A stretch of 64,000 nt of DNA from Rhodospirillales bacterium (GTDB lineage: Bacteria > Pseudomonadota > Alphaproteobacteria > Acetobacterales > Acetobacteraceae). The DNA lies in NCBI GenBank assembly GCA_947460455.1, contig CANHKG010000002.1:2004-66003 (forward strand). The letters run 5' to 3'. Every line of letters begins with the position of its first letter. The first letter of the stretch is position 1. Under the pieces are notes generated by a model. It searched no databases and was not told the DNA's origin. It saw only the letters and a program-made list of their open reading frames with translations. Of the stretch, positions 6,888 to 43,121 are shown in pieces. The translations under genes were made by a program, and so were the position numbers.

Positions 6888-6891
6888 GCCC

Positions 6892-29583: not shown

Positions 29584-30225
29584 TCAGCGGTCCTCGTCGG
29601 CTCCGGCTGCCAGCCTGCGCTTCGCGCTGCCGATCCACGCCTCCACGTCCACCAGGCGGCTGATGTCGCCGAGTGCGGCGCGCAGCTCGCCGAGATCTGA
29701 ATGTGCGAGTTGGCGTGTGGTCCTGACACCGATCTGGCTCATTCGGATCAGCATGCCGGGACCGAAGCCGATTTCAGCGAGCGGGGGATCGAATTCGGGG
29801 CTGTCAGGCATGGCCGGGGTTGCAGGTGCATCTGCTTCGGCGGTGGGTTCATCCTGGCTGGCTGCGACGGGCGCAGCGCCGGGATCGTCCTCTGCTGGCG
29901 GGCCTGCCGGCACCGGCGCTTCATCGATGGCAGCGGCTGCTTCGGGCGCCGTTTCCTCCGCCATGATGTGGGAATAGCTGGCAAAAACCGAACCGGACTG
30001 GAGCGGCTGTGCGGCGGCGGGATGGCGTTCTTCGGGCGGCAATGCCGGTTCGGGGGCGGCCGCCGGCGGCTCCGGCTTGGCGGCACCTTCCCGTTCGAGG
30101 CGGCGCGCCTCGTGCGACTCTCGCAGGCTGCTGCGCAAGATCGGCCGCTGGCGGAGACGCTCCTGGCGATAGGCTGCGATCATCATCATGCCTTTGGAGG
30201 CCGGCGGATCTGACCGAGAGCTCAT
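29584..30225 (-). CDS. Hypothetical protein with acidic/Pro-rich centre and C-terminal helix-hairpin-helix-like domain
   Basis: 213 aa. The C-terminus ..LAEIGFGPGMLIRMSQIGVRTTRQLAHSDLGELRAALGDISRLVDVEAWIGSAK.. resembles the HhH/DUF4332-like module common in alphaproteobacteria. Lies downstream of gvpA. Confidence 0.55.
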   Translation of the reverse strand: MSSRSDPPASKGMMMIAAYRQERLRQRPILRSSLRESHEARRLEREGAAKPEPPAAAPEPALPPEERHPAAAQPLQSGSVFASYSHIMAEETAPEAAAAIDEAPVPAGPPAEDDPGAAPVAASQDEPTAEADAPATPAMPDSPEFDPPLAEIGFGPGMLIRMSQIGVRTTRQLAHSDLGELRAALGDISRLVDVEAWIGSAKRRLAAGADEDR

Positions 30226-30285
30226 GTTCTATCCTGTGGGATGTGCGCGCGCCGCGGCATTGGGGGGGCGACCCTCAAGGGGAGG

Positions 30286-30335
30286 GGATCATGCGCTGCC
30301 CGGCACCGCGAGCAGTGCTGGGCGACGCATGATCC
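30286..30335 (-). terminator. Strong compound stem-loop 8 nt downstream of the gvpA stop
   Basis: Outer stem ggatcatgcg/cgcatgatcc (10 bp) encloses inner stem gcccggcac/gtgctgggc (9 bp with one G-U) and an 8-nt loop. Confidence 0.55.
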
Positions 30336-30342
30336 ACGCAAC

Positions 30343-30561
30343 CTAGGCTGCTGCCGCCACCGGATCGGTCGTGAGGCCGACGGCTTCGGCATAGCGCAGA
30401 TAGGTCTCCACCGATGCCACGACGACGCGGATCTCGATGGCAATCAGCTCGATGCCGACCAGCGCGATGCGGATGAACGCATCAACCACCACACCCTTAT
30501 CCAGGATGCGATCGATGACTTCGGCCAGGCTGCTCGAAGCAAGGCTTTTATTGATCGTCAT
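30343..30561 (-). CDS. gvpA: Gas vesicle major structural protein GvpA
   Basis: [63 protein letters not shown] is a near-canonical GvpA sequence. Start ATG 30561 lies 7 nt after GAAGGGA (an ATG at 30567 is too close to the RBS). Confidence 0.92.
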
Positions 30562-30703
30562 AGCCATTCCCTTCAATAAAATCGTCAACCCTCGAACGGG
30601 CAAACTGTGCAATTCGAGCGCCACTGGCCGAACTTCACCCCATCAACATAGGAATTTTGGATAAACTGACTATGACCGCTTATTATTATTTATATTCAGA
30701 CTT

Positions 30704-30724
30704 TGGAATATGTTATTCTGGAAT
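30704..30724. promoter_or_regulatory. Direct repeat TGGAAT-N9-TGGAAT in the AT-rich gvpA upstream region
   Basis: tggaatatgttattctggaat sits within the visibly AT-rich 30640-30725 tract, about 145-160 nt upstream of the gvpA start. Confidence 0.3.
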
Positions 30725-30789
30725 GCGCAGTTTGCGCAGCCTAGGCGGGTTCAGCAGAACAGCCGCACCGGCTTGGCCATGTGCGGCAG

Positions 30790-31356
30790 CTACGCCAGCC
30801 TGGGGTGTGGTGGGTTGGCGCGATGCACGGCTGCGCGGGCGCTGGCCAGGGCGATCTGGTACAGCAAGGCACCGGCCAGGGCGCGATACCTGGCTTCGAC
30901 AGTGCCGGAGAACATGGCGAGGATGTGGCTGTACCTGGAGTGCGCAAGCCAATCGAAACCCGATGGCTGCTCCGCAAACGCGGCACTCAACACGCTCGGG
31001 CAGATATCCGCGGTTGGGTCGTGGCCTTCGATGGCACCGAGTGCGTCATCCAGGGCTTCGAATGCAAGGGCGTGGCATCGAACGCGGCGTGCCAGCCCGG
31101 CGCGGTCCTTCGACCACGCGACGATCTCCACGACAAACAGGCCCTCGACGGTCTGGTACAGGCCGAGCTCGTGCCAGAAGCAGGCCGGCGCCACAACGAT
31201 GGATGGCGCTCCGAGCTGGGCCTGCAGCAGCCAGCCGACGAAACGCAGCGGTGATTCACCATGCCGCCGCAACCGGAAAGGCCGCCGCAGGTCTGCATGC
31301 GCGCCTGGCAGGTGCGGCTGCAGATGTGTGGGCGCATCTTGGAGGGCGCCCGTCAT
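30790..31356 (-). CDS. Unknown-family protein, paralog B
   Basis: ..PFRLRRHGESPLRFVGWLLQA..CFWHELGLYQTVEGLFVVEIV..FEALDDALGAIEGH..ARYRALAGALL.. The start overlaps the paralog C stop (ATGA at 31353-31356). Confidence 0.65.
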   Translation of the reverse strand: MTGALQDAPTHLQPHLPGAHADLRRPFRLRRHGESPLRFVGWLLQAQLGAPSIVVAPACFWHELGLYQTVEGLFVVEIVAWSKDRAGLARRVRCHALAFEALDDALGAIEGHDPTADICPSVLSAAFAEQPSGFDWLAHSRYSHILAMFSGTVEARYRALAGALLYQIALASARAAVHRANPPHPRLA

Positions 31357-31859
31357 CGCGGTTCGTTGCCAAAGAGGGCACGCACCATGCCGAACCAGGC
31401 GCCGCGGAACAGTCCGGCCAGCGCGATATCTTCGCCGGCCTGGCGGCAGCTTTCGCCTGGCACGACAAGATCCGCGCAGGGGAGGACCAAGGCGATCATC
31501 GGGTCGTGGGCCTGGATCGCCCGCGGGAGTGCAGGCGCGTTCGCGTGCAGCGCGGAGTCTCGCCAGACGCCACCGAGGCTCTCCGTCAGGTGATGCGTCA
31601 GCGTGGAGGCGAGGCCACTGGTGCGGGTTTCGAACAGCGTGAGCTCGGACCATGCGGGCAGGCCGACGCAGCGATTGCTGACATGCAGCAGGGCGCGCCC
31701 GCAGATGTGGAGCGGCCGCAGCCCGTGGCGCGGCAGGATGACCGGGTGGAAGTGGTGGTCCGCGCTCTCGATGGCCGGTGAGGCCCGATCGGGAGCGGCC
31801 GGCTCATGCGCGCAGAACGGATTGGCCGCAATCGGTGCCATCGCGCTGCGCCGGGTCAT
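31353..31859 (-). CDS. Unknown-family protein, paralog C (most divergent)
   Basis: ..PVILPRHGLRPLHICGRALLH..PAWSELTLFETRTSGLASTLT.. ATG 31859 overlaps the paralog D stop by 1 nt (TGATG). Confidence 0.6.
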   Translation of the reverse strand: MTRRSAMAPIAANPFCAHEPAAPDRASPAIESADHHFHPVILPRHGLRPLHICGRALLHVSNRCVGLPAWSELTLFETRTSGLASTLTHHLTESLGGVWRDSALHANAPALPRAIQAHDPMIALVLPCADLVVPGESCRQAGEDIALAGLFRGAWFGMVRALFGNEPR

Positions 31860-32335
31860 CAGCCAATGTCGAACTGGAACAGCAGTTCGCCGATCATCGA
31901 TCGGTACTGCATCTCGACCCAATCGGCACGCTGGCGCAGTGATGCCGCGCGCAGCGCGATCTCGGTGGCGCTGATGCGCCGGTCTGACGCGTCGAGGTCG
32001 GCAAAGAGATCGGCTGCCGGATCGAAGGCCTGCAGCCAGGCCAGGGCCTTCTCCAGCGAGTCGAACCGATGGGCGTGGAAGACGTCGCTTTCGCACTGGT
32101 TGTCCCGGCAGGTTCGCAGGGCCACGGCAACCTGCCCGTCGTCGCACCGGAAGATCTGCAGGTCCTGCCAGGCCGGTGCGGCCGGCGTTCGGCTCGTGCA
32201 TTCGGCCAGCAATTCCCCACGGACGCGCAGCGGCTTTCCGCCGGACTGGCGCAGCAGGTACCCGCCCTCGCTGATGGCGGGGGCGGTCGATGGCGACGAC
32301 GGGATGCCGGTTTCAAGGCTGAGCATCGCGGACAT
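31859..32335 (-). CDS. Unknown-family protein, paralog D
   Basis: ..GYLLRQSGGKPLRVRGELLAE..PAWQDLQIFRCDDGQVAVALR..FDSLEKALAWLQAF..QYRSMIGELL.. ATG 32335 follows CTGGAG. Confidence 0.65.
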   Translation of the reverse strand: MSAMLSLETGIPSSPSTAPAISEGGYLLRQSGGKPLRVRGELLAECTSRTPAAPAWQDLQIFRCDDGQVAVALRTCRDNQCESDVFHAHRFDSLEKALAWLQAFDPAADLFADLDASDRRISATEIALRAASLRQRADWVEMQYRSMIGELLFQFDIG

Positions 32336-32406
32336 GACAGCGCTCCAGGAATTTACGGCAGAGTGGACGGGAAGCCTTACCAATCCCCGAAAGATCAAGC
32401 GTGAGA

Positions 32407-34956
32407 CTACGCGGCCTGGCTGCGACCGGGCGGGCAATTCCCCGCATCGCTGGCGATCGCCACCGCGGTTGCGACGGATTGCAGCTGGCGGATGACCCTG
32501 TCGACGGCGCTCAGAATCTCCGGCGCGCGGCCGGTGATCCAATCCTCGCCCAGGCCGGTCCGGCCGGAGACGGCAGCCTCGGCAAGGGCCGCGCTGGAAT
32601 GCATGAGGACGGCCGCCTCCACCCCAACACCGGCGAGCTTCGCGACCGGATCGGTTGTGGGCACGGGGCGTGCCGGCGCATGGGCGGCCTCGGCGCAGGC
32701 CTTCGCACTCTCCATCATCTGATCGGCGACGAGCTGCACCTTGTCGATCGTGCCGGTGAGGATTGTGCCCGACTGTTCGACGGCGGAACAGGTCTGCGCG
32801 ACGCGGCCGAGGCCGTGCGAAAGCTCGCCTGTTGTGGCGGCCATGTCGCTTTGCAGCCGCGCAAGGACGGTGACCTGTTCGGCGAGGTTTTCGCGCCATT
32901 CAGTCGCAGCATCCACTTCGGCATCCGTAAGCTGCTCGGCGGAGGCGTGGAGCGCCGCCAGGCTGCCTTCGATCCGCGCGCAGGTGCCGGCCAACTCATG
33001 CAGCAGTGCTTCCGTGAGTGCCGGCGCGGCCGGCGCCTGGATGTCGTGCACGAGGCTTTCGAAGCGGTGCAGCATCGGCGGGACGCTGCCGATCATGCCG
33101 GCAATCTCCCGCAGCCTTTCGTTCGCCTCGGCGCGGAATTCGCCGGCGAGAGTGTCCAGGCGTTGGCCTGTGGACAGCCCGGCTTCGGAGAACAGGCTGA
33201 CGCGCTGTTGCACAGTGGCCAGCACCCGGTCGATCTCCTGCGCCCGGGCGCTCAGCACTTCCGCATCGCCGCGCAGGCTCGCGCCGGCCTCGGCCAGCGT
33301 TCCCGACACGAAACCAGCGTGATCGCGCAGGCTTGTCACGGCCTCCGCGCCAACCTGTGCGAGCTGGTCGCCGGCATCCTGCAGGGTCGCCTGCATATCG
33401 TCGGTGCGATGGCGCAGCGCGTCCAGCAGCGCGCCCAGCGACGCGTTGCCGGTGGTGTAGGCGGTGTCGATCGTGCCGCCCAGATGGGCGATGGAGGCCG
33501 CAAGCTCGCCGCCCGCACCGGACATCTCGGCGACTTTCTGGTCGATGCGATCTACCTCGCCACGAATTCGGCCGGCGGACGCGGAGGCGCTGGCGATCAT
33601 CTGTGCCGTTGCGGCACAGAGCTGCTGCGCTTCGTCATTCAAGGCCCGCACGCCGGCGTCGGCGGCGGTGTTCAGGGTGGGGATGGCGGCGAGCAAGGCC
33701 TCCGTTGCGTGCACGATGTCGCTGCCCACCGCCTCGCCGGCGGCAAGGCAGGCGCCGGCGGCCTCTCGCGCACGGCCGCTTTCCGCCTCTACCGCGCGGG
33801 CCGCGGCTTCGATCTGCTCGACGCCGGCGAACAACGCCTGGCTTGCGGCCGTGCCCGCATGCGTGGCCGTGGCGATCTCTGCGGCGGCCGCCTCCAGCGC
33901 CTGCGCGCCGGTGCCGAGCTCGACGACAAGCGCCGGAAGGGCCTCGGCATGGGCCAGCAATCCGGCGGAGGCGGATGCCATCATTTCGGCATGATCGCGC
34001 CCGGCCTGGGTGAGGTCGTTCACCCGCATCTGGAGATCTGTGCTGCCGTTGATGACCGCGTCGCGCATTTCGGCGTGCACCTGCGTGCTCTGCTGCAGGG
34101 CCAGGGCAGCGTCGTCGAGGGTCTGCAGGGCGCGGTCGGCCTGGGTTGTGATGGCGGCAGCAAGTTCCGGCAGGGTGGCCACGCCGGTCTCCACGCGACC
34201 CACAGCCTCGTGGGCGCGGGCAACCACGCCGGCACCCGCCGCGGCGATCTCTCGGCAGGCCTGATCCAGGGAGGCCGCGTCCCGTTCCATGCGGCCCGAG
34301 GCGTCGCCCATGGCGGCGATCCGCACAACGATGCCGGAGGTCGCGCGCTCCAGCGCGTGGGCCGCCGCGTCGGCTGCCGCCGTCAAGGTTTGCAATGGCA
34401 GGGACATCGCGGCGCCGGCCTCTTGCGGATAGGACGGCTCGATGCCGCGGGCTGCGAGGTCGCTTGCGATCCGCTCCAACCGATCTGCGATCGTGACGGC
34501 GCCTTCGAGTGTGGTCACCGTGTCGCGCAGGCACAGTTCCGCGTGTTCGGTGCTCTCGGACAGGCGTTTCTCCGCATCCATCGCGAAGCCTGCCAGGTTG
34601 GCGCCCACCACCATGGACTCCCGCGCCGCGGCATTGCCGGCGTCGCGCAGGTCGCTCCATTGCCGGCGCTCATCGTGCATCAGGGCACGCATATCCTCGA
34701 TCGCCGCGCGCAAGTCGGCGTGTTCGGGCGTGTGTGCGTGCGCGGCGTTGGATCCCGCACGTGCGGCTGTCGCCTGCGATCGCAGCACGATCACGGCGGC
34801 GGCGCAGCCGAGCGCGGCCGAGAGGAACGGCAGCAGCGTCCAGCCATGGGTGCCGATATCAGCCAGCAGCTGCGGCCCCCGCGCGGCGATGCCGGCCAGA
34901 CCGGCCAGGACTGCGAGGGCGAGGCACAGCCAGCCAAGCTTGTTCTGCCATTCCAT
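32407..34956 (-). CDS. Large (849 aa) Ala-rich, predicted all-helical protein with two N-terminal TM segments; unknown function
   Basis: N-terminus LGWLCLALAVLAGLAGIA / WTLLPFLSAALGCAAAVIVL, then about 750 aa of A/E/L/Q/T-rich helix-type sequence. Starts 12 nt after the gvpK stop. No MCP tip motif and no 33-aa GvpC repeat. Confidence 0.75.
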   Translation of the reverse strand: MEWQNKLGWLCLALAVLAGLAGIAARGPQLLADIGTHGWTLLPFLSAALGCAAAVIVLRSQATAARAGSNAAHAHTPEHADLRAAIEDMRALMHDERRQWSDLRDAGNAAARESMVVGANLAGFAMDAEKRLSESTEHAELCLRDTVTTLEGAVTIADRLERIASDLAARGIEPSYPQEAGAAMSLPLQTLTAAADAAAHALERATSGIVVRIAAMGDASGRMERDAASLDQACREIAAAGAGVVARAHEAVGRVETGVATLPELAAAITTQADRALQTLDDAALALQQSTQVHAEMRDAVINGSTDLQMRVNDLTQAGRDHAEMMASASAGLLAHAEALPALVVELGTGAQALEAAAAEIATATHAGTAASQALFAGVEQIEAAARAVEAESGRAREAAGACLAAGEAVGSDIVHATEALLAAIPTLNTAADAGVRALNDEAQQLCAATAQMIASASASAGRIRGEVDRIDQKVAEMSGAGGELAASIAHLGGTIDTAYTTGNASLGALLDALRHRTDDMQATLQDAGDQLAQVGAEAVTSLRDHAGFVSGTLAEAGASLRGDAEVLSARAQEIDRVLATVQQRVSLFSEAGLSTGQRLDTLAGEFRAEANERLREIAGMIGSVPPMLHRFESLVHDIQAPAAPALTEALLHELAGTCARIEGSLAALHASAEQLTDAEVDAATEWRENLAEQVTVLARLQSDMAATTGELSHGLGRVAQTCSAVEQSGTILTGTIDKVQLVADQMMESAKACAEAAHAPARPVPTTDPVAKLAGVGVEAAVLMHSSAALAEAAVSGRTGLGEDWITGRAPEILSAVDRVIRQLQSVATAVAIASDAGNCPPGRSQAA

Positions 34957-34968
34957 CGTGCCGCTCCG

Positions 34969-35277
34969 CTACATCAGCCGGCCCAAGGGTCCGAGATCCA
35001 GATTGAGGCTGTCTGGTGGGACGCCGAGCTTTTCGCACAGCGACACCACCGCATCGCGCGATCGCAGCAGGGTCAGGCCCAGCCGCTCGGCCTCCTCCGG
35101 CGTGATCGTCTCGGCCTCCATCCGGCGGACGGCCTGTGCCTCCATGAGGCGGCGGAGGAACTCGACCAGGGTCAGCACGAGCCGGGCCAGATCCTGCTCG
35201 ACCCGGTCGGGATCGATGCTGATGCGGCCCAGCACCGGGGGGGACGACGACGACGCATCAAGGTCCAGGACGCTCAT
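34969..35277 (-). CDS. gvpK: Gas vesicle protein GvpK
   Basis: ..RISIDPDRVEQDLARLVLTLVEFLRRLMEAQAVRRME..ITPEEAERLGLTLL..LNLDLGPLG.. is the GvpK signature. ATGA overlap with the upstream gene. Confidence 0.88.
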   Translation of the reverse strand: MSVLDLDASSSSPPVLGRISIDPDRVEQDLARLVLTLVEFLRRLMEAQAVRRMEAETITPEEAERLGLTLLRSRDAVVSLCEKLGVPPDSLNLDLGPLGRLM

Positions 35278-35489
35278 GCCTGCGGCCCTGCGCTGGGCAG
35301 CAGCGTCATGCGCGAGGCGGTGTCGACCGAGGCGAGCAACGCGCGCACGCCGAGATAGACCAGGTCCACGCCGGCGACGGTCAGCACGATCTGCCCATCG
35401 GCGACGACGCCGGTATCCAACAGGCGGTCCAGCACATCGACCAGCGTGGCCGGTTGGGCGCCGTCGGTGAGGGGGATGCGGTCAGACAT
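35274..35489 (-). CDS. gvpS: GvpA/J/M/S-family small gas vesicle protein (GvpS-like)
   Basis: 71 aa. ..ATLVDVLDRLLDTGVVADGQIVLTVAGVDLVYLGVRALLASVDTA.. is the GvpA-fold core. Confidence 0.8.
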   Translation of the reverse strand: MSDRIPLTDGAQPATLVDVLDRLLDTGVVADGQIVLTVAGVDLVYLGVRALLASVDTASRMTLLPSAGPQA

Positions 35490-36288
35490 GGGCGGCCTCC
35501 GCCTGCAGCGCCGCCCGGGCGAAGGCATAGGCGGGCCAGGGGCCGGTCAGCCGCACGGCAAGCCCGGACGGTGCCAGTTCCTCGGTGAGGGCGGCGAGCC
35601 ATGCCTGGACGAGGGGCGAGGCGCCGGCATCGGTGGGGGCGAGCACGCTCCAGCAGGGCGATCCATCCCGCTGGCGCTCGACCAGCACCGGCCAGCCAGC
35701 CGCCTGCAGCAGCGCGGTGATGCGCGCCTCCACGCTCGCCAGATGCTCGACGCGCGCGGCGACTTGCGCCTTGTCGATCCGTTTCGCCATCAGGAAGGCG
35801 GTGCCGGCGCCGGCATTCTCGGCCTGGCGGGTGAGGCGTTGCAGTTCGGCGTCGTGATGGGCAAGCCAGGCGGCGTGGCGGGCCGGGTCGGCGCAGATGG
35901 AGAGGCACCACTCCGCATGACCTGCCATGCGTGCGATCCCGTCGCGCATGGCGGCGGCGCGCGGTCGCAGCCACCCTGACAGCCGGTCGAGGCTCGAAAA
36001 CAGGGTTCCGAAACCGAGTGGCAGGCAGGCCTGCCGCGACGCGGCCGCGGCGACCACGGCGTGATGCGCGGCGGCGCGTTCCGCCATCCAGTCGGGATCG
36101 TCGGTGCGGTTGCCGTCCTGCCCGTCCTCGAACAGCGCGCGGGGCACCAGGGTGGCCAGGACATCGACCGTCCCGAAGGAAATCGCGTCCACCGTGGTGC
36201 CCGGAAGCAGGCCTGGAACATCCGGCGCCGGCTGGCCCGGGGCGATGACGGCATAGACATACCAGGCGCGGTCGGTGTGCGCGGTCAT
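35482..36288 (-). CDS. gvpL: GvpL/GvpF-family gas vesicle assembly protein
   Basis: ..AWYVYAVI.. start, ..HHAVVAAAASRQACLPLGFGTLF.., ..LTGPWPAYAF.. ATGA overlap with the upstream gene. Confidence 0.85.
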   Translation of the reverse strand: MTAHTDRAWYVYAVIAPGQPAPDVPGLLPGTTVDAISFGTVDVLATLVPRALFEDGQDGNRTDDPDWMAERAAAHHAVVAAAASRQACLPLGFGTLFSSLDRLSGWLRPRAAAMRDGIARMAGHAEWCLSICADPARHAAWLAHHDAELQRLTRQAENAGAGTAFLMAKRIDKAQVAARVEHLASVEARITALLQAAGWPVLVERQRDGSPCWSVLAPTDAGASPLVQAWLAALTEELAPSGLAVRLTGPWPAYAFARAALQAEAAHV

Positions 36289-37316
36289 GCCGCATGCTCC
36301 ACAACCTGCCCCGCCACCGGCGCCAACTCGGGCAGAACAAGGCGGTAGCCGGCCTGCCGCACCAGGCTGCGCAAGGTCCTCGGCGCGGCCCGCAGCAGCG
36401 GGCGGAGCAGGCGATAGGCCTCGGTGATCTCGGTGAAGGCCTCGGTGGACGCCGGCTGGCCGGGGCGACGGTCTGGATGGGCGGACGCGGCGAGGGCCCG
36501 CCACTGGCGATGCAGCAGGGTGATATCCACCTTCTCCGGCAGGCCGAGCACGCGCCAGCTTCGGGCGATGTCCCCAGCCTCAACGCGGGTGAGCCGGACC
36601 GGGTGAAAGCTGACCGGCGGCATCGGCCCGCGCAGATCGGCACTGGCCCCCGCCACCTGGGCCGGCGGCAACTGGCCGAGCGCGGCCTCGATCAGGTTCT
36701 CCCGGCCGCGGGGGACCAGAACGGTGGTGGTGATCTCGGTCTCCCCGCCCGCAGTGGACCCTGGCGCGATGGCCAGGACATGGCGGCTGAGCGCCTGCAG
36801 CACGACGGCCGAGCGGGCGGCGTGCTCGGCGCGCAGCAGCGCCTGGACGGCCTGCGCCAACAGGGCCGGATCACCCTTCGCGGCGGCTTCCTGCAGGGTC
36901 TCGCGCTGCGTCGCCAGCACCGCCTCGGGCGGCCAGCTGATCACCAGATCCCATTGATGCACGGCCCCGAGCTGGGCGAGCCTGGCGCCCAGATCCTCCC
37001 AGGACAGCTCCAGCAGCGCGTCGATCGCGCTGGTTGGGCAGCAGGCAGCGCCTGGGTCCATCGGCAGGAACGGTCCGAACTGGCAGGCAATCTCCAGCCG
37101 GCGGTGCACCGCCTGCAGCCCGCTGAGCAGGGCCTTGCGGCCGCGGCGGGCAAGGGGCGTCGTCGGCTCATCCTGGATCAGGGCAGCGACCGTCGGGCCG
37201 TACACCGCGCGCAGCGACGGACCCGGCACGGCGGACATCGCCGCGCACAGGCCTTCGATATCCGCGAGGCCGGCAAAGCCCAACAGCCGCGTCGGTGCCA
37301 TGTTCACATCCGCCAT
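36285..37316 (-). CDS. GvpL/GvpF-like protein fused to a C-terminal J-domain
   Basis: The N-terminal 270 aa are GvpF/L-like (..HRRLEIACQFGPFLPM.., ..LRGPMPPVSF). The C-terminus ..WRVLGLPEKVDITLLHRQWRALAASAHPDRRPGQPASTEAFTEITEAYRLL.. matches a J-domain including HPD. AGGAGG RBS. Confidence 0.8.
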   Translation of the reverse strand: MADVNMAPTRLLGFAGLADIEGLCAAMSAVPGPSLRAVYGPTVAALIQDEPTTPLARRGRKALLSGLQAVHRRLEIACQFGPFLPMDPGAACCPTSAIDALLELSWEDLGARLAQLGAVHQWDLVISWPPEAVLATQRETLQEAAAKGDPALLAQAVQALLRAEHAARSAVVLQALSRHVLAIAPGSTAGGETEITTTVLVPRGRENLIEAALGQLPPAQVAGASADLRGPMPPVSFHPVRLTRVEAGDIARSWRVLGLPEKVDITLLHRQWRALAASAHPDRRPGQPASTEAFTEITEAYRLLRPLLRAAPRTLRSLVRQAGYRLVLPELAPVAGQVVEHAA

Positions 37317-39400
37317 GATCGTCCTCCTGAGTGTTCTTGCAGTGCCACATCGAAATCGGCCGGGGAGACCACCGGCTCCGCCGCTGCCGGATCGCGCGAG
37401 AGCGACGCGAGGGCTGCCAGGCGGCAAATGCCGGCGATATCTGCGCCCACGCAGCCTTCGGTGCGGGCCGCGAGGGCCGGGATGTCCACGCCCGCCGCCA
37501 GTGGCATCGGGCGGGTGTGGACCGCGAACAGGGCGGCGCGGCCGGCCTCGTCCGGCACCGGCATTTCCAGCACCAGATCGAACCGGCCGGGCCGCAGCAG
37601 GGCGGGGTCGATCAGGTCGGGGCGGTTGGTGGCGGCGAGCACGACGAGGCCGCCGGGTTGGGTGATGCCGTCCATCTCCGTCAGCAACTGGGCGACCATG
37701 CGTTCCACCGTGGCGCCGGCGCCACTGCCGCGGCGCCCGGCGATGGAATCGATCTCGTCGAAGAACACCACGCAGGGCTGCGCCATCCTGGCGCGGGCGA
37801 AAATCTCCCGCAGCGCCCGTTCGCTCGCCCCCTGCCATTCCGCCAGCAGCTCCGGGCCGCGCACCGAGATGAACCCCGCCTGCGCCGCACTTGCGAGTGC
37901 CCGGGCGAGCAGTGTTTTGCCGGTGCCCGGCCGGCCGTGCAGCAGCACGCCGCGCGGCGGCTTCACGCCGAGCCGGGCGAACCGGCTGGGCTCGGCCAGC
38001 GGCAGCTGCACCGCGCGGATCAGCGTGTCGCGCAGATGGTCGATGCCGGCGACCTCGGCCCAGCTGACATCCGGGATCTCGACGAATACCTCGCGCAGTG
38101 CCGTGGGCGTCACCTCGCGCAGCGCCGTCTCGAAGTCGCCTGCCTCCACCTGCAACGAGCCGAGGTCAGGCGTCCGTCCGGCCGCCATCGCGCCGTCGCG
38201 CCGCAGTGCAGCCATGCCGGCTTCCCGGCACAGGGCCGCCAGATCGGCGCCGACATGGCCATGCGTGGCGGTGGACAGCAGGGCGAGATCGACATCGCCG
38301 GCCAGCGGCATGCCGCGGGTGTGCACGGCCAGGATCTCCCGCCGCCCCTCCCGGTCTGGCGGATCGACGCGGATTTCGCGGTCGAACCGACCGGGGCGAC
38401 GCAGGGCGGGATCGATGCCGTCGGGCAGGTTGGTTGCCGCCAGCACCATCACCTCGCCGCGCTCGGCCAGCCCGTCCATCAAGGTCAGCAACTGGGCGAC
38501 GATCCGGCGTTCGACCTGCTTCTCGCTGGACAGCGCATCGCGCTTCTGGGCGATGGCGTCGATCTCGTCGATGAAGATGATCGAGGGTGCCTGCTTGCGG
38601 GCGGTCTCGAAGGTGGCGCGCAGCTGCTGTTCGGAGGCACCGTAGTATTTGTCGACGATCTCCGGCGCGTTGATGGTGATGAAGTGCGAGCCGGTCTCGG
38701 CCGCCACGGCGCGGGCGATCATGGTCTTGCCGGTGCCGGGGGGGCCGACCAGCAGCACGCCCTTCGGCGGCGCGATGCCGAGATGGGCGAACACCTCGCG
38801 GTTGCGCAGCGGCCATTCCACCACTTCGCGCACCCGCTGCACAACGCGGCCGAGGCCGCCGACATCCTCGTAGCGCGGGCCGGCGCCGGGTTCGCGGGCG
38901 GCTTCACGCGGGCGGACGCTGATCTCCACCGCGGTGGCCTCCGCCAGCACGCACGGACCGTCTGGTGCGATGGCGAGCACGCGCAGCTCGGCCTCGCGCC
39001 CGTTGGTCAGGGCCAGGCGAAACCGCTCGCCGAGGCAGAGCGGCACGCCCGCGAGACCGCGCTGCACCATCGCGGCGGTGATCCCCGCCGGCGCCTCAAT
39101 CCGCAGTCGCTCGGCCGCTTCCGGCGGCGCGTGGAGAGCAATCTGCGCCTGCCCGCCCACGACCAGGCCGGCATTCGCGCGCGTTGCCGTGTCGATGTGC
39201 AGCAGGCCCTGGCCGCGCAGGGCCGGGCGCTGCGGTAGGGCGCGCACGAAACTGGTGCTCTTCCCCGTTACCGCCAGCAGGGTGCCGGTGCTGCCGCCGA
39301 GCGCCTGCAGGGCCGCCGGGTCGATGCGTGCCACGCCGCGGCCGGCATCCTCGGCGGTGGCCTGGGCCACGGCGAGGCTGAGGGCGGGCTCAGGCCGCAT
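37304..39400 (-). CDS. CDC48/VCP-like double AAA+ ATPase
   Basis: 698 aa. Two Walker A boxes (GPPGTGKT, GRPGTGKT), two Walker B boxes (IIFIDEID, VVFFDEID) and an N-terminal CDC48-N-like region. Confidence 0.88.
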   Translation of the reverse strand: MRPEPALSLAVAQATAEDAGRGVARIDPAALQALGGSTGTLLAVTGKSTSFVRALPQRPALRGQGLLHIDTATRANAGLVVGGQAQIALHAPPEAAERLRIEAPAGITAAMVQRGLAGVPLCLGERFRLALTNGREAELRVLAIAPDGPCVLAEATAVEISVRPREAAREPGAGPRYEDVGGLGRVVQRVREVVEWPLRNREVFAHLGIAPPKGVLLVGPPGTGKTMIARAVAAETGSHFITINAPEIVDKYYGASEQQLRATFETARKQAPSIIFIDEIDAIAQKRDALSSEKQVERRIVAQLLTLMDGLAERGEVMVLAATNLPDGIDPALRRPGRFDREIRVDPPDREGRREILAVHTRGMPLAGDVDLALLSTATHGHVGADLAALCREAGMAALRRDGAMAAGRTPDLGSLQVEAGDFETALREVTPTALREVFVEIPDVSWAEVAGIDHLRDTLIRAVQLPLAEPSRFARLGVKPPRGVLLHGRPGTGKTLLARALASAAQAGFISVRGPELLAEWQGASERALREIFARARMAQPCVVFFDEIDSIAGRRGSGAGATVERMVAQLLTEMDGITQPGGLVVLAATNRPDLIDPALLRPGRFDLVLEMPVPDEAGRAALFAVHTRPMPLAAGVDIPALAARTEGCVGADIAGICRLAALASLSRDPAAAEPVVSPADFDVALQEHSGGRSWRM

Positions 39401-39665
39401 CCGCCGGCTCCTCGGCTGCCGTGCCGGCCTGGATGGCGCGCATTTCCATGAGCTCCTCCAGCAAGCGGGATTCCTCGGCCTCGAACGCCTCCTCGGTGAT
39501 CTCACCGTTGTCGAGCTGGCGTTCCAGCAGCCGCAGCGCCTGCTCGATGCGGGCGGGATCCAGCATCTTCTGCAGTGCCTGCTCGGCCACCTGGCGGGCG
39601 ATCCATTGCAGCGCGCCCAGCGGGCCGGCCACGGGCAAGGCGATGAGGGAGCCGAGGATGCTCAT
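39390..39665 (-). CDS. gvpG: Gas vesicle protein GvpG
   Basis: 91 aa. ..PVAGPLGALQWIARQVAEQA.. then ..LERQLDNGEITEEAFEAEESRLLEEL.. is typical GvpG. ATGA overlap with gvpF. Confidence 0.85.
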   Translation of the reverse strand: MSILGSLIALPVAGPLGALQWIARQVAEQALQKMLDPARIEQALRLLERQLDNGEITEEAFEAEESRLLEELMEMRAIQAGTAAEEPADAA

Positions 39666-40435
39666 GCCTGCGCCGCCCCCATCTGCCAATCGGCGCGCAG
39701 CTGGACGAAGTTGTAGGGCGGCACCGGGCCGACATAGCGGAACACCATGCGGCCTTCCCGGCTCTCTGACAGGCTGCGCATCCGCGCGTCGAACTGCGGT
39801 TCGTTCGCGCGGGACACCAGGAAGGCGCGGTTGAGCACCATGTCGTCGTCCAGCGTCTTGAGCTCGGCTTCGCGGTCGGCCAGGGGAGCGAGCTCGGCCA
39901 GGATCGCCTCGGCATCGGCGGTGCGGCGCTTGGCCAGCGCCTGCTCGATCTGGCGACCGAGCTCCACCCGCTCGTAGTAGGTTTCGCTGGCCGGGCGGTC
40001 GCGCAGGCGATTGCGCAGCCGGGCCAGATTGGCGTCGGAGGCGATGATCTCCGCGAACACCACGCCTTCGCGCCAGCTTGCCTTCACGCCAAGTTCCACC
40101 TTGCCGTCGATCGCGGCCATCGCCGCGGTGAAGGCGGCCTGGTTGGTGGTGATGCAGGCATTCAGCGCCGCCTCGCCAGGCGCCACCGTGCCGAAGCGGA
40201 CGGGCAGCACCGTCGCCTGCGTCATCACGCGCTCCAGCAGGGCGGTGTGCGCCAGCAGGTTGCGGCGGGTCTGCGCGACCTCGCCCGGCTCGACGGCGCT
40301 GACCAGCGCCTGCAGGGCACCTTCGCCGCGCAGGGTCACGGCCGCACCGCCGACGCCGGTGCCCCAGGCGGTGGGGTCGAGACGCTGGCCGGCGGCGACG
40401 AGGCCATAGACGTAGAAGCGTTCCGGGGTGGTCAT
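39662..40435 (-). CDS. gvpF: Gas vesicle assembly protein GvpF
   Basis: ..RFYVYGLV.., ..NLLAHTALLERVMTQATVLPVRFGTV.., ..MVLNRAFLV.., ..YVGPVPPYNF.. ATGA overlap with the Hsp20 gene. Confidence 0.88.
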   Translation of the reverse strand: MTTPERFYVYGLVAAGQRLDPTAWGTGVGGAAVTLRGEGALQALVSAVEPGEVAQTRRNLLAHTALLERVMTQATVLPVRFGTVAPGEAALNACITTNQAAFTAAMAAIDGKVELGVKASWREGVVFAEIIASDANLARLRNRLRDRPASETYYERVELGRQIEQALAKRRTADAEAILAELAPLADREAELKTLDDDMVLNRAFLVSRANEPQFDARMRSLSESREGRMVFRYVGPVPPYNFVQLRADWQMGAAQA

Positions 40436-41028
40436 GCGCGCGTGCTCCGGGCCAGTCGCACTTCGAGGATGCCGTTCTGGAAGCTGGTCTGCAGGCTTTC
40501 GGGCGCAACCGTGGCCGGGAGCACCAGCGACTTGCGATAGGCCCGTGCACCGGCGGCCTCGATCAGCAGCGACAGCCCGTCCAACGTGCAGCGAACCGTG
40601 GCGGGGTCGGCGCCGGGCAGTTCGGCGACGACGATGATGGCGTCCGCCTCCTCGAAGATGTCGGTGATCGGCTGGCGGGAGGCCGGTTGGCTCGCCTCCG
40701 GCGATGGCTTGGCGGTGCTGTCCGGCACATCGCCGAAGCGCTCGGCAGAGACACCGTCCGCGCCCATGCGCAGGGTGTAGCCGAACACCATCCGGGCATC
40801 CTTGCCGCCGACCGAGAAGCCCTGCTCCGTACGGCCGTCGCCGCTTGCGCTTTTGGCGGCGTCGGCGAGTTTTTCCACCATGGATTGCAATGCCTCGACG
40901 ATGCCGCCGACGCCGGCGAAACCGCTGGTGTCCTTCATCGCGGCGGGGTCGGAGGGTTGCTCGGCGCGGTCGCGTTCCGAAAGCCGGCGCGCCACGCTGA
41001 AGCCGTGTCGGGGGGGGCGAAGTGCCAT
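40432..41028 (-). CDS. Hsp20/alpha-crystallin-domain protein (GvpH-like)
   Basis: C-terminal ACD ..DIFEEADAIIVVAELPGADPATVRCTLDGLSLLIEA..YRKSLVLPATV..SFQNGILEVRL.. AGGAGG RBS. Confidence 0.8.
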   Translation of the reverse strand: MALRPPRHGFSVARRLSERDRAEQPSDPAAMKDTSGFAGVGGIVEALQSMVEKLADAAKSASGDGRTEQGFSVGGKDARMVFGYTLRMGADGVSAERFGDVPDSTAKPSPEASQPASRQPITDIFEEADAIIVVAELPGADPATVRCTLDGLSLLIEAAGARAYRKSLVLPATVAPESLQTSFQNGILEVRLARSTRA

Positions 41029-41037
41029 GCCGACCTC

Positions 41038-41340
41038 CTATTGCCGCGCCGTGGCGGCGATGGTGTGCTCGAGCTTGGCGATCCGTTCGAGCAGGGCGGC
41101 ATTGTCGGCCTGCAGCTTGGCGGAGCCGGCGCCGTTCAAGGCGGCATCGTTCTCCCACCAGCGGATGCCCATTTCGAGGGCGCGATCGACCGAGGCCACC
41201 ACCAGGCGGATGCGCACGGTGAGCAGTTCGACGCCCACCAGGCTCACCGAAATGTCGCCCGCGACGACGATCCCCTTGTCGAGGATGCGCTCCAGGATAT
41301 CCGCCAGGCCGGAGCCGCCGACGCTGTGTTGCAAGGCCAT
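41038..41340 (-). CDS. gvpJ: Gas vesicle protein GvpJ (GvpA family)
   Basis: ..GLADILERILDKGIVVAGDISVSLVGVELLTVRIRLVVASVDRALEMG.. plus a C-terminal extension. Confidence 0.88.
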   Translation of the reverse strand: MALQHSVGGSGLADILERILDKGIVVAGDISVSLVGVELLTVRIRLVVASVDRALEMGIRWWENDAALNGAGSAKLQADNAALLERIAKLEHTIAATARQ

Positions 41341-41393
41341 AATGGGTCCCCTTTTGGGAATGGCGCGTGGATGAGGCGCGGTGGTGCCGCGCG

Positions 41394-41648
41394 TCAGCCC
41401 TGGCCGCGAATGAAGCGGCCGGTGCGGTGCCAGCCGGTGACCTGGCCATCATCGGCGAGCGTCACCTCGTAGCTCGCCAGCAGGTCTTGCGTGCGGGGGA
41501 TGGAGCGGTGTTCCAGCATGTCCATGCTGACCGTCCAGCCGCCTTCCGACCGGTCCAGCCGGCTGATCGCGTCTGGGCTGAGGCCGGTGATGGCGGTCAT
41601 CTGCCGTTTGGCCTCTTCAACCAGATTCACCAGCGCGTTCGTGCTCAT
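41394..41648 (-). CDS. gvpO: Gas vesicle protein GvpO
   Basis: 84 aa. ..AKRQMTAITGLSPDAISRLDRSEGGWTVSMDMLE..YEVTLADDGQVTGWHRTGRFIRGQ matches the GvpO pattern. Confidence 0.75.
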   Translation of the reverse strand: MSTNALVNLVEEAKRQMTAITGLSPDAISRLDRSEGGWTVSMDMLEHRSIPRTQDLLASYEVTLADDGQVTGWHRTGRFIRGQG

Positions 41649-41666
41649 CGTCTGTCTCCCTGTTGA

Positions 41667-42119
41667 TCAGCCGCGCCACTTGCCGGGTTGCGGCCGCAGG
41701 CCGGTCCGGCTTTGCAGGGCCGCCCATTGCCGCCCGGCCTGCGGTGCCGGCAGGGGAAGGTCGGCGGCGGCCACACGCGACGGGGCGGTGCGCCCGGTGC
41801 GCGCCACTGCCGGCGCCGGTGCCGGCGGCTGGATCGGTTCGGGCGGCGCTTCCAGCCCGGGGCGCAGGCTTGGGTCGAGCGCGTCTATCTGCTCCACCAG
41901 CCAGGACAGGCGGCGCTGGAGCTTGGCGAAGCTGCTTGTGGCCGCCTGCAATTGCTGCTCCAGCAGCTCGATCTGATGGGACTGGCGCGCGCGCCGCTGC
42001 GCCAGCAGGGCGAACTCCGCCGCGAGGCTTTCGATTTGCCGCTGCCGGGTGTCCTTGCGGGAGGTGCGCGTGCCAGGCGGGCGGCTGGCCATGCTGCGCG
42101 CGACGGGGCGGGGCATCAT
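41667..42119 (-). CDS. Hypothetical coiled-coil / Pro-rich protein within the gvp operon
   Basis: 150 aa. Basic N-terminus, heptad region ..QIESLAAEFALLAQRRARQSHQIELLEQQLQAATSSFAKLQRRLSWLVEQIDAL.., Pro-rich tail. The start overlaps the gvpN stop. Confidence 0.55.
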   Translation of the reverse strand: MMPRPVARSMASRPPGTRTSRKDTRQRQIESLAAEFALLAQRRARQSHQIELLEQQLQAATSSFAKLQRRLSWLVEQIDALDPSLRPGLEAPPEPIQPPAPAPAVARTGRTAPSRVAAADLPLPAPQAGRQWAALQSRTGLRPQPGKWRG

Positions 42120-43117
42120 GCCGCGACTCCTTGCCGGCTGCGGGCGAAGGCGGGGTCGGCGCCGCAGAAGTGATCGATCAACTGGATCAGCAATTGGCGC
42201 TGCTGCGGATCGGGCAGCCCGTCCCCGTCCGGCTTCAGCTTGCTGCCCAGCACATCGAGGCAGAGTTGAACAAAGCGCGGCTCGTCGGAGGCCACGCGCA
42301 GCTTCATCTCGCCGGCGATGCGCGCGATCATGATGGAGGCGCGCAGCGTTGGCCGATGCGCGTAGGAGCGCGAGGCGCGGAAGTCGCGCACCGTGTCGAC
42401 GATTCGCCCGGCATCGCGCGGCGTGAGGCCGGAGCGGGCGGCGACGATGGCAATTTCCGTGTCACGATCGAAGCTTTCCAGATCGAGCGTAATCATCCGG
42501 TCGGTCAGCGCGTCCTGCGCCAGATTGGTGCCGACGTGATCGGTGGGGTTGGAGGTGAAGATGGCGCGGAACTGCGGGTGCACCGGCAGGTAGCTCTCGC
42601 CCCGTCCGGCCTTGGCCAGCACCAGCAGCCGCTCTTCCAGCACTGTCAGCAGCACGTTGTTGGCACTCGGCGGGGCACGGTTGAACTCGTCGTAGACGAG
42701 GGTGCCGCCCTCCATGCAGGCCACGGTCAGCGCCCGGTCGAGCCAGACGGCATCGGTGTGGCTCTCTACCTTCGTGACGCTGCTGATGTAGCGGTCCACC
42801 ACGCGCTTGGTACGCTTGATCTCGTCACCGCCGACAAGCCGGCGGGTGTCGAAGCTGGCATCGCCGACCAGCAGCACGATCGGCCGCTTGAGCTGCTCTG
42901 CCACCCGCAACGCCAGGCTGGTCTTGCCGCTGCCGGCCGGGCCGCGCAGATGCAGGGGGTAGCCGGCGCTGAGATAGCTCAGGGCGCGGCGCTCCAGATC
43001 GGCAATCGCCTCCGAGGTTGCGATCTCTGGATTCTGTACGAGATGCCGCAGGGCCGGGTCTGTTTCGTCGGCCGGGATGGCGGGCGGGCGATCCGCCGGG
43101 GTGGTGAGCCGCGCCAT
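42116..43117 (-). CDS. gvpN: Gas vesicle AAA+ ATPase GvpN (CbbQ/NirQ/NorQ/GvpN family)
   Basis: 333 aa. Walker A LRGPAGSGKTSLA, Walker B ..GTLVYDEFNRA.. Typical GvpN length and position. Confidence 0.88.
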   Translation of the reverse strand: MARLTTPADRPPAIPADETDPALRHLVQNPEIATSEAIADLERRALSYLSAGYPLHLRGPAGSGKTSLALRVAEQLKRPIVLLVGDASFDTRRLVGGDEIKRTKRVVDRYISSVTKVESHTDAVWLDRALTVACMEGGTLVYDEFNRAPPSANNVLLTVLEERLLVLAKAGRGESYLPVHPQFRAIFTSNPTDHVGTNLAQDALTDRMITLDLESFDRDTEIAIVAARSGLTPRDAGRIVDTVRDFRASRSYAHRPTLRASIMIARIAGEMKLRVASDEPRFVQLCLDVLGSKLKPDGDGLPDPQQRQLLIQLIDHFCGADPAFARSRQGVAA

Positions 43118-43121
43118 GCTG

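Follow-up and report, generated by a model that had tools for sequence, protein, structure and literature searches.

Gas vesicles are regarded as organelles devoid of lipid, the assembly of which takes place free in the cytoplasm. To our knowledge, none of the described gas-vesicle (Gvp) proteins is membrane-anchored, attachment of gas vesicles to membranes is known in no studied organism, and GvpU-driven clustering in Bacillus is the only known element of vesicle positioning. GvpU, which clusters the gas vesicles of B. megaterium, and MamJ of magnetosomes represent organelle tethers or organisers. Some Bacillus-type gvp clusters encode GvpP (YtxH-like) and DUF948 proteins, which are about 100–170 aa long and possess a single membrane helix. 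GvpC, the outer-surface gas-vesicle protein of cyanobacteria, haloarchaea and Serratia, is soluble, has 32–40-aa repeats, is encoded beside gvpA and matches PF01304. Outside the gas-vesicle context, MCPs and two-helix HAMP receptors have their N-terminus inside the cell, followed by two membrane helices and a long Ala-rich helical cytoplasmic part, a layout that the protein described here would share.

The window analysed comprises 64,000 nt of contig CANHKG010000002.1 from a Rhodospirillales bacterium (Acetobacteraceae). It harbours a gvp locus in which gvpK is directly followed by a large gene, the 849-aa product of which belongs to an unnamed family of acidic, Ala-rich helical proteins with conserved architecture. 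The following features are located in this region:

29602..43841, minus strand: whole gvp locus (tblastn with the called genes of locus L001; Pfam matches)
34969..35277, minus strand: gvpK (PF05121, E 6e-30), the invariant upstream neighbour of the large gene
34957..34968, minus strand: spacer of 12 nt between gvpK and the large gene, with a GGAG Shine-Dalgarno sequence (direct sequence reading)
32407..34956, minus strand: large gene for the putatively membrane-anchored 849-aa helical-repeat protein P0002 (ORF and translation, GC1/2/3, dN/dS, synteny of homologs)
31862..32335, minus strand: p159 (158 aa), the next gene downstream of the large gene (tblastn mapping)

The initial annotation of an 849-aa ORF spanning exactly 32407–34956 proved correct, with the gene residing on the minus strand. 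In this frame, the G+C contents of the three codon positions (GC1/2/3 = 0.75/0.54/0.83) are of the coding type, and dN/dS amounts to 0.39 in comparison to the 80 %-identical ortholog of locus L004. A plus-strand reading of the same span was rejected, since its translation resembles wrong-frame sequence, as was a 985-aa plus-strand ORF (32401–35358) as a gene, which does not show the coding-type GC pattern. At 70 % G+C many long shadow ORFs arise, the 985-aa ORF on the opposite strand included, and the large ORF itself combines a biased composition with the lack of a family match, as would also be expected of a spurious or decaying, functionless product of high G+C. Against this stand the coding-type GC pattern and the dN/dS value, a ribosome-binding site, the end-to-end conservation in full-length orthologs (42–97 % identity), and the retention of position and architecture down to 22–28 % identity. 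Such a reading is thus effectively refuted and can be regarded as extremely improbable; the large gene is a genuine gene under constraint.

Also in agreement with the initial annotation, the large gene starts 12 nt past gvpK: the gvpK stop codon TAG (34971–34969) is followed by the spacer cGGAGcggcacg and the ATG of the large gene at 34956. GGAG at 34964–34967 constitutes the ribosome-binding site, located 7 nt ahead of this ATG. No promoter-like or terminator-like site was detected in the spacer or the surroundings of the large gene, which is probably translated from one mRNA with gvpK.

The first part of the locus comprises, in this order, p241, gvpN, p151, gvpO, gvpA (100 aa), gvpH/Hsp20, gvpF and gvpG. 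These are followed by genes for a CDC48-type AAA+ protein and a GvpL-J-domain fusion, gvpF/L, gvpJ, gvpK and the large gene, and then by p159, a p159 paralog, gvpA2 (72 aa) and p211. In every homologous locus examined (L001–L009, L019–L021, L031–L035 and L026/L091), the family gene is located directly 3' of gvpK, even where identity has dropped to 22–28 %. Its usual downstream neighbour is p159, which is not the direct follower in L020 or L034. The link of the large gene to gas vesicles is therefore strongly supported, and the association proposed in the initial annotation stands on this adjacency to gvpK. The cultured Roseomonas sp. USHLN139 possesses the same cluster type without the large gene, which is hence dispensable for upkeep of the cluster and perhaps for the making of vesicles. 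The large gene lies distally in the assembly operon, and gvpA2 (98.6 %-conserved) is placed separately and far off, an arrangement that suggests a stoichiometry typical of accessory factors and not of shell coats. Genes for phytochromes, a STAS protein and an MCP-PilZ protein adjoin the gvp cluster.

The family is small, with 38 hits among 1.8 billion representative proteins. Pfam and NCBIfam yielded nothing beyond sub-threshold coiled-coil noise, so that no significant match to a known family unrelated to gas vesicles emerged. The homologs carry hypothetical or spurious names in their sources, which agrees with the earlier remark that no role is established for such a protein. When the family alignment was used in a word-indexed search, no further homologs were gained, the candidate list being saturated by Ala-rich words, and tblastn against a plasmid collection gave no match to the large gene. 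The family was found only in Acetobacteraceae, where Pseudoroseomonas aestuarii KCTC 22692 is a cultured representative, and in a single further metagenome-assembled genome (MAG) of Alphaproteobacteria. Correspondingly, among 80 gvpK loci from many phyla, the family gene is present in three of Acetobacteraceae and in one of an alphaproteobacterial MAG, and absent from the approximately 75 others, which belong to other phyla.

The common layout of the family consists of a two-helix anchor, a conserved membrane-proximal region, a variable repeat body and a conserved C-terminal helix-loop-helix, with a total length of 600–1173 aa. In all of the 20 members examined, hydrophobic segments are present at the N-terminus and absent elsewhere; their number is two in 19 members and one in P0026, the start of which is probably truncated. 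Likewise, all 20 carry a net negative charge (-21 to -71) and contain few Lys residues. In every full-length member, the C-terminal helix-loop-helix ends in the signature SVATAxAxASD, more generally [ST][VA][AG]T[AS][VLI]A[LIVF][AV][SA]D, about 12–40 residues from the end. The 849-aa protein shares the two-helix anchor, the C-terminal motif, the adjacency to gvpK and the acidic Ala-rich repeat body. An ORF in a MAG of Tardiphaga (Bradyrhizobiaceae; locus L071) is likewise located directly after gvpK; its product has a pair of hydrophobic helices close to the N-terminus, and its long helical body contains tandem repeats of ~95 aa. It was rejected as a family member, since it goes undetected by the family profile, and is regarded as a positional and architectural analogue only; its contig ends ahead of the C-terminus, where the signature motif would lie.

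Within the 849-aa protein, the following segments can be distinguished:

34876..34938, minus strand: hydrophobic helix 1, residues 7–27 (peak of 2.25 in a 19-residue Kyte-Doolittle window; matching segment in all 20 family members)
34777..34845, minus strand: hydrophobic helix 2, residues 38–60 (hydropathy; matching segments in family members)
34057..34719, minus strand: conserved membrane-proximal cytoplasmic region, residues ~80–300 (identity to 12 distant homologs; invariant columns)
32677..34056, minus strand: variable acidic Ala-rich helical body, residues ~301–760 (degenerate 75–85-aa repeats; AF2 helices)
32437..32649, minus strand: conserved C-terminal helix-loop-helix domain, residues ~770–840 (motif, alignment A3, AF2, hhalign)

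The two N-terminal transmembrane helices of the initial annotation were recovered as hydrophobic segments, with no further such segment in the protein. According to hydropathy and the positive-inside rule, which are the basis of the topology, the protein would be oriented N-in with both ends in the cytoplasm, and the K/R-rich N-termini of relatives fit this orientation. The composition is dominated by Ala (23 %) and Leu (10.5 %) with only six Lys residues, and 108 D+E face 60 K+R (net charge -48). Hydropathy varies with a period of 3.5–3.6 residues, indicative of amphipathic helix. An AF2 model of the full-length protein is nearly all helix at low confidence (pLDDT 55, pTM 0.33), with long helices at residues 311–477, 483–623 and 644–759 of the variable body, likewise of low confidence; a rod shape of this body is accordingly tentative.

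The description of the protein as Ala-rich, helix-type sequence was upheld, in contrast to its reading as plain low-complexity sequence, since it contains conserved blocks and a cryptic repeat. Identity to the 12 distant homologs reaches 33 % for residues 101–150 and 41 % for residues 201–250 versus 12–23 % in mid-protein, and most phmmer matches fall on the membrane-proximal region. The best-conserved block, RDAASLDQACREIAAAGAGVVARA (residues 225–248), is also the prototype of the 75–85-aa repeat. At the other end, the motif SVATAVAIASD (residues 827–837, nt 32446–32478) lies in a domain that hhalign relates to the G511 protein (80 % probability, E 1.4e-5), and AF2 predicts two helices for the last 100 residues at pLDDT ~85–88. 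Judged by eye, this motif was also considered as a VIM-type CDC48-binding motif and rejected, because its pattern is a poor fit and some clusters that carry the gene are devoid of CDC48.

With its two membrane helices and the long, helical, Ala-rich part in the cytoplasm, the protein could be a degenerate receptor-like transducer of MCP or sensor-kinase topology, relaying an envelope or periplasmic cue along a long coiled coil in order to control vesicle assembly or the adjacent photosensory module. The best PDB profile match is indeed the cytoplasmic domain of the Thermotoga MCP 2ch7 (E 5e-6, 28 bits), a weak similarity to be read as compositional, because the same matches include designed coiled coils and heptad repeats of viral spikes. 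Foldseek with the full-length AF2 model revealed no PDB entry at E<1e-3 and only generic long-helix proteins (BAR, SMC, MCP), so that the structure-database search proposed at the outset returned only generic and compositional matches. The loop between the two helices ranges from ~10 to ~150 residues across relatives: it measures about 150 aa in the G511 relative, where it would be periplasmic, and 85–115 aa in the proteins of L035 and P0046. The G511 protein also has a HAMP match, at sub-threshold level (E 0.005, 17.6 bits vs a cut-off of 25). In the 849-aa protein, however, the loop of about 10 residues leaves no room for a sensor domain, and MCPsignal (PF00015), HAMP and YtxH are unmatched in Pfam even at E≤10, in line with the initial annotation, which had seen neither an MCP tip motif nor a HAMP domain. 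Unlike MCPs, the protein thus possesses neither tip, HAMP nor ligand-binding domain, no enzymatic or DNA-binding output domain is present, and its C-terminal domain with SVATAxAxASD is unrelated to them. A signalling coiled coil would, moreover, rarely vary so freely in length and in the number of its repeats. Even with the phytochromes, STAS protein and MCP-PilZ gene next to the cluster on its side, the transducer reading is quite unlikely.

Internal repeats became visible only in a search of the family with HMMs built from individual units. The unit at residues 255–335 of the 849-aa protein recurs at 538–604 (iE 8e-7), and the 75–85-aa repeat, weak in this protein, is strong in P0018, P0020, P0021 and P0022 (iE down to 1e-13); shuffled controls in this search gave no recurrences. 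Self-BLAST and hhalign self-alignment of the 849-aa protein detected no repeats. The suggested repeat analysis was therefore productive in the former approach and unproductive in the latter. Offset analysis of the 849-aa protein showed only the helical periodicities 7, 11, 18, 25 and 32, and the 33-residue repeat of GvpC is lacking, as had been noted from the start. Between orthologs, tandem units vary in number and type (11, 14, 40 and ~75 aa), and the repeat expansions of relatives fall in the variable body; in P0008, for example, a 40-aa unit is expanded in tandem at the point that corresponds to query residue ~375. Such variation is the behaviour expected of a spacer.

The repeats invite comparison with GvpC, since both proteins are long, helical, repeat-containing and encoded in gvp clusters, and repeat number varies among relatives of either. 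Haloarchaeal GvpC moreover has a distinct C-terminal portion past its repeats (PMC9501494), as does the large protein. The latter might hence be a GvpC analogue, i.e., an external helical-repeat protein on the GvpA ribs that stiffens or shapes the shell and replaces the missing gvpC. The initial statement that the cluster contains no recognisable gvpC was borne out, PF01304 being unmatched in the other ORFs of the cluster and anywhere in the genome (E≤1), and the large protein is the sole long helical-repeat protein of the locus. In the same bacterial family there is a second gvp cluster type, from which the large gene is absent; the interval between its gvpA and gvpN, the usual gvpC site, is occupied by an apolipoprotein-like ORF of 325 aa, which also speaks for the analogy. 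The 849-aa protein has no match to PF01304 at E≤10; this counts for little by itself, because the positional GvpC of the second cluster type misses PF01304 as well. Opposed to the analogy are the two membrane helices kept in nearly all members and absent from GvpC, the cryptic 75–85-aa repeats in place of a 33–40-aa tandem period, the strongly acidic and Lys-poor composition, the location of the gene next to gvpK, far along the assembly operon, rather than after gvpA, and the sister cluster of USHLN139 without the gene. No sequence similarity between the large protein and GvpC was detected. Taken together, the conserved anchor, the lack of a 33-residue repeat, the distal operon site and the sister cluster disfavour a coat of the GvpC type, which we consider improbable.

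A tether or scaffold is favoured instead, as conserved ends enclose a length-variable repeat spacer. The large protein would have an accessory function, conserved in one type of gas-vesicle operon of Alphaproteobacteria. Its two N-terminal helices may insert into the cytoplasmic membrane, leaving both protein ends in the cytoplasm, and the conserved membrane-proximal region may oligomerise there. The remaining ~790 residues would make up a rod of amphipathic helices, acidic and rich in Ala, that consists of degenerate 75–85-aa repeats, the repeat body serving as a length-tolerant spacer. The C-terminal helix-loop-helix with SVATAxAxASD could bind to the surface of gas vesicles or to one of the Gvp assembly proteins, and the protein would then tether or scaffold vesicles, or their assembly complex while it is forming, a defined distance away from the inner membrane. 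We infer the tethering role and the binding partner, as we do the topology and the rod shape. The general form of this explanation, in which a rod on the cytoplasmic side is held by its inner-membrane anchor and contacts vesicles or assembly complex through its C-terminal module, is tentatively preferred, at somewhat less than an even chance. Of the roles put forward in the initial annotation, tether or scaffold is accordingly the favoured one, and a GvpC-like stiffener of the shell is less likely. More doubtful is the specific proposal of a first dedicated tether between gas vesicle and cytoplasmic membrane, in which the repeat number would set the length and the SVATAxAxASD module would grip the shell or cap complex and so determine the place in the cell, and the distance from the membrane, at which vesicles lie or nucleate.

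The acidic, Ala-rich and repetitive nature of this cluster-encoded protein recalls the principle of MamJ and GvpU, which position an organelle rather than build it; these two are not membrane-anchored and have no sequence relationship to the large protein, the corresponding role of which is conjectural. GvpP and DUF948 proteins share with it the N-terminal hydrophobic helix, the subsequent apolipoprotein-like helical region and the gvp context. YtxH is unmatched in the 849-aa protein, and DUF948 appeared only sub-threshold in one relative (E 0.015).

The protein could alternatively act as a membrane-bound assembly platform or holdase that concentrates the hydrophobic shell subunits (GvpA/J) or the GvpF/L/G/K complex at the membrane as vesicles nucleate and has no later role. 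Such a function would suit a gene that stands at the close of the assembly operon and is probably co-translated with gvpJ and gvpK, as it would the chaperone-type Hsp20/GvpH, the CDC48-type AAA+ protein and the J-domain fusion encoded in the same operon and the apolipoprotein-like amphipathic helices (sub-threshold matches to ApoLp-III, DUF948 and DUF1664 in relatives). The large gene is nevertheless also found in clusters without CDC48 (L034) or without both CDC48 and GvpH (L020), and no client-binding site is identifiable from sequence. Overlapping with the tether or scaffold, and inseparable from it by computation, the platform is judged unlikely.

If anchored as predicted, the large protein would be the first membrane-anchored gas-vesicle protein. 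Literature searches on membrane-anchored or coiled-coil Gvp proteins, gas vesicles of Acetobacteraceae and the clusters of Bradyrhizobium or Rhodobacter revealed nothing about it, and the words 'transmembrane' and 'cytoplasmic membrane' are absent from a 2022 review of Gvp proteins (PMC9501494). The scope of these claims is bounded by the narrow distribution of the family and by the conjectural nature of the function. Pseudoroseomonas aestuarii KCTC 22692 (with the gene) and Roseomonas sp. USHLN139 (without it), both cultured, form a natural pair for comparison. Through a conserved protein of this kind, membrane-anchored and probably co-translated with gvpK, the organelle would be connected with the cell envelope, which would bear on the site of vesicle nucleation, on light-regulated buoyancy in freshwater Acetobacteraceae (phytochromes being encoded beside the cluster) and on engineering the placement of vesicles for acoustic reporters. 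Were the protein a tether, the sub-cellular positioning of gas vesicles would be genetically encoded, as it is for magnetosomes and carboxysomes.

The gvp locus of the window, mapped with the called genes of the related metagenomic locus L001, is a single one on the minus strand. It opens with p241, gvpN, p151 (a short coiled coil), gvpO, a 100-aa gvpA-type gene, gvpH/Hsp20, gvpF and gvpG, continues with a CDC48-type double AAA+ gene, a gvpL-J-domain fusion, gvpF/L, gvpJ and gvpK, and ends with the large gene, p159, a p159 paralog, a 72-aa gvpA2 and p211 (p-labels denote unnamed ORFs by approximate length in aa). Beyond it lies a divergent operon of phytochromes, heme oxygenase, STAS protein and bilin reductase. 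The main features are:

43841 to 29602, minus strand: gvp locus
43125-43841, minus strand: p241, first gene of the locus, no Pfam match
41044-41340, minus strand: gvpA, 100 aa, inside the operon, 94% identical to its L001 counterpart
34971-34969, minus strand: stop codon TAG of gvpK, read from the sequence
34956 (ATG), minus strand: preceded by the 12-nt spacer cGGAGcggcacg after the gvpK stop, read from the sequence
32407-34956, minus strand: large gene, 849-codon ORF
30346-30561, minus strand: gvpA2, 72 aa, 98.6% identical to its L001 counterpart

The 72-aa gvpA2 looks like the major shell gene, standing apart from the assembly operon. The N-terminus of p241 (SGKGSGSIELTLPSDLRDLVGLP) resembles, as judged by eye, an AbrB/SpoVT-type swapped-hairpin DNA-binding motif, and p241 may therefore be the regulator of the cluster.

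The 849-aa ORF of the initial annotation exists and lies on the minus strand, and the 12 nt placed between gvpK and its start are exact. A GGAG Shine-Dalgarno sequence is located 7 nt upstream of the ATG; promoter-like or terminator-like sites were not detected near the gene. Its minus-strand GC1/GC2/GC3 values (0.75/0.54/0.83) match those of real genes of the window, and the dN/dS ratio against the 80% identical ortholog of locus L004 is 0.39 overall and 0.23-0.48 in each 100-codon window after the first. The large gene is real and under constraint, and a spurious ORF is effectively excluded. A plus-strand reading of 32407-34956 was rejected, its translation resembling wrong-frame sequence. 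Likewise, a 985-aa ORF overlapping the whole gene (32401-35358, plus strand) does not show the GC-position pattern of a coding frame and was regarded as a shadow, since shadows are common at this high G+C content (70%); it could mislead an automatic gene caller.

Residues 7-27 and 38-60 are the only hydrophobic segments of the encoded protein. The protein is composed of 23% Ala and 10.5% Leu with only 6 Lys, carries 108 acidic vs 60 basic residues, has a strong hydropathy periodicity of 3.5-3.6 residues and is almost wholly helical in the AF2 model. Both the N-terminal helix pair and the alanine-rich helical character initially proposed were thereby recovered. Searches against Pfam and NCBIfam yielded no above-threshold match, and MCPsignal, HAMP, GvpC and YtxH did not match even at E ≤ 10, in agreement with the reported absence of an MCP tip, HAMP domain and GvpC repeat. 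In line with the initial statement that the cluster has no recognisable gvpC, GvpC (PF01304) matched neither its unnamed ORFs nor anything else in the 5.19-Mb assembly. Compared with known systems, every tested defining feature of GvpC is absent, similarity to YtxH/GvpP is not detectable, and of three MCP features tested the signalling tip and HAMP are lacking; only the arrangement of two predicted membrane helices recalls MCPs, and the loop joining them has about 10 residues here. In a 2022 review of Gvp proteins (PMC9501494), neither "transmembrane" nor "cytoplasmic membrane" occurs, and no description of the protein was found in the open-access full text searched.

Relatives are few. A word-indexed search of 5.8 billion proteins retrieved 8, five with 80-97% identity (844-849 aa) and three with 40-45% (1042, 882 and 620 aa). 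Exhaustive phmmer against 1.84 billion representatives returned 38 proteins at E ≤ 1e-3 (17 of them at E ≤ 1e-10), mostly 600-1005 aa long; the query was one sequence rather than a profile, and the family may be somewhat wider. Source names are "hypothetical protein" or conflicting automatic labels (MlaD, YhgE/PIP, FlaC). The family gene directly follows gvpK on the same strand in every locus open to inspection, i.e. in close loci (L001-L005), in Rhodopila and Acetobacteraceae MAGs (L006-L009, about 30-35% identity) and for the most distant full-length matches P0025 and P0027 (L031 and L032, 22-28% identity). The operon order of the window is common to nearly all inspected loci (L026 was mapped upstream of gvpK only, and L071 is a short contig). 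The large gene is thus one of an unnamed family that goes with gvpK in a single type of operon, and this adjacency upholds the gas-vesicle link of the initial annotation.

Hydrophobic segments are confined to the N-terminus in all 20 members examined and number two in 19, the exception (P0026, one segment) having a start that looks truncated; the loop between them is about 10 to about 150 residues long. Net charges span -21 to -71, with few Lys residues. Conservation concerns mostly the two ends. Compared with the 12 distant members, the window protein shows 33% identity over residues 101-150, 41% over 201-250 and 31-39% over 751-849, vs only 12-23% across 401-750. The signature [ST][VA][AG]T[AS]xAxx[SA]D occurs in every full-length member about 12-40 residues from the end, and AF2 of the last 100 residues places helices at 770-796 and 804-838 (pLDDT about 85-88). 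The full-length model (17-sequence alignment) is of low confidence (pLDDT 55, pTM 0.33) and made up of very long helices at 78-170, 185-240, 244-289, 311-477, 483-623 and 644-759. Foldseek of the model against PDB gave nothing at E < 1e-3, and a PDB sequence profile retrieved coiled-coil look-alikes only (top, MCP cytoplasmic domain, 28 bits).

Repeats make up the middle of the protein. HMMs built from the units 225-300 or 255-335 gave several recurrences in relatives, e.g. P0020 391-461 (iE 1.6e-13), P0022 347-418 (1.6e-13) and P0021 341-405 (7e-12), with 17-21 extra domains of at least 10 bits in total vs 0 in ten locally shuffled sets. Repeats of the window protein are degenerate (best recurrence 255-335 vs 538-604, iE 8e-7). 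Recent tandem expansions with units of other sizes were detected in orthologs (11 aa in P0011, 14 aa in P0026, about 75 aa in P0018). In P0008 (1042 aa; L001 10001-13129), about five tandem copies of the 40-aa unit ASVVKIAAAALAVQEETERARLVADGFAERAGTAVSEAAT, single at residues about 375-415 of the window protein, represent a recent expansion within the helical body. The large proteins of the window and of L001 share only about 45-48% identity, vs 98.6% for gvpA2.

Within the bacterial family of the window, 7 of 151 sampled genomes contain gvpK. Direct reading of the downstream ORFs revealed a family member right after it in five: P0046 (713 aa), P0047 (600 aa), L021, the window's own genome and G043 (cut by the contig end). 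The other two are devoid of the large gene and have a different order (gvpA-X-gvpN-F-G-J-K-A-H-CDC48). X of this second type (L023 1696-2673) is a 325-aa ORF with a Pro/Ala-rich tail that matches Apolipoprotein A1/A4/E below threshold (E 9e-7, 29 bits); it does not match PF01304 and is a GvpC candidate by position. Class-wide, gvpK occurs in 3 of 401 genomes, two with the C-terminal signature and the third (G235) with a different cluster.

A GvpK-alignment scan of 185,579 species genomes gave more than 560 loci, the best 80 of which were examined downstream of gvpK for the C-terminal domain or for an ORF that is acidic, rich in Ala and endowed with two membrane helices. These 80 derive from Actinomycetota, Acidobacteriota, Methylomirabilota, Myxococcota and other phyla, and only three Acetobacteraceae and G511 among them carry such features. 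One of them belongs to Pseudoroseomonas aestuarii KCTC 22692, which is in culture; its protein has about 640 aa and scores E 4e-23 with the family profile (for a database size of 10^6 sequences), and its cluster lacks CDC48. Roseomonas sp. USHLN139 (L051) shares this CDC48-less order and is a natural strain without the large gene; neither tblastn nor the C-terminal HMM revealed a remnant in the interval of roughly 1.2 kb (about 6261-7536) that follows gvpK. In a Tardiphaga sp. MAG (L071 1792-4054), the ORF after gvpK encodes two hydrophobic helices and tandem repeats of about 95 aa that are nearly identical; the family profile did not detect this ORF (contig end cuts it), and it may be an analogue in Bradyrhizobiaceae.

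The role proposed initially was left between stiffener, scaffold, ruler and tether. A GvpC-type shell stiffener would agree with a complementary pattern, the other Acetobacteraceae cluster type having the apolipoprotein-like ORF at the gvpC position and no large gene; it is nevertheless improbable, and less likely than a tether or scaffold, because the membrane anchor is conserved, a 33-aa period is missing, the gene lies at the distal end of the assembly operon without adjoining gvpA, and it is absent from a sister cluster. Outside Acetobacteraceae, the gvpK-adjacent protein of G511 ("Alphaproteobacteria bacterium" MAG; L026 10001-13522, minus strand; 1173 aa; C-terminal motif IATAVAIASD) separates its hydrophobic helices by a loop of about 150 residues and matches HAMP below threshold (residues 200-249), both hinting that the family may descend from a receptor-type membrane protein. 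A receptor-like signalling role would draw on this periplasmic domain and HAMP-like segment, on the membrane topology and on the photosensory neighbour genes, but is unlikely for the window protein, which possesses no sensor loop, HAMP or output domain.

Gas vesicles are cytoplasmic. The K- and R-rich N-termini of relatives and the short loop fit an N-in, C-in hairpin predicted from hydropathy only, which would leave most of the protein in the cytoplasm. Conserved ends and a length-variable, repeat-shuffled acidic helical body suggest a spacer design between two binding functions, of which the membrane-side one would comprise the anchor and the conserved region (residues 80-300) and the far-end one the C-terminal helix-loop-helix. 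Given these two ends joined by a spacer-like body, a tether or scaffold anchored in the inner membrane and acting on gas vesicles or their assembly complex is tentatively favoured. A membrane-bound assembly platform or holdase, overlapping with the tether or scaffold and computationally inseparable from it, has a rather low probability. In the window, the gas-vesicle operon includes a member of an accessory family, predicted to be membrane-anchored, that had not been described before.
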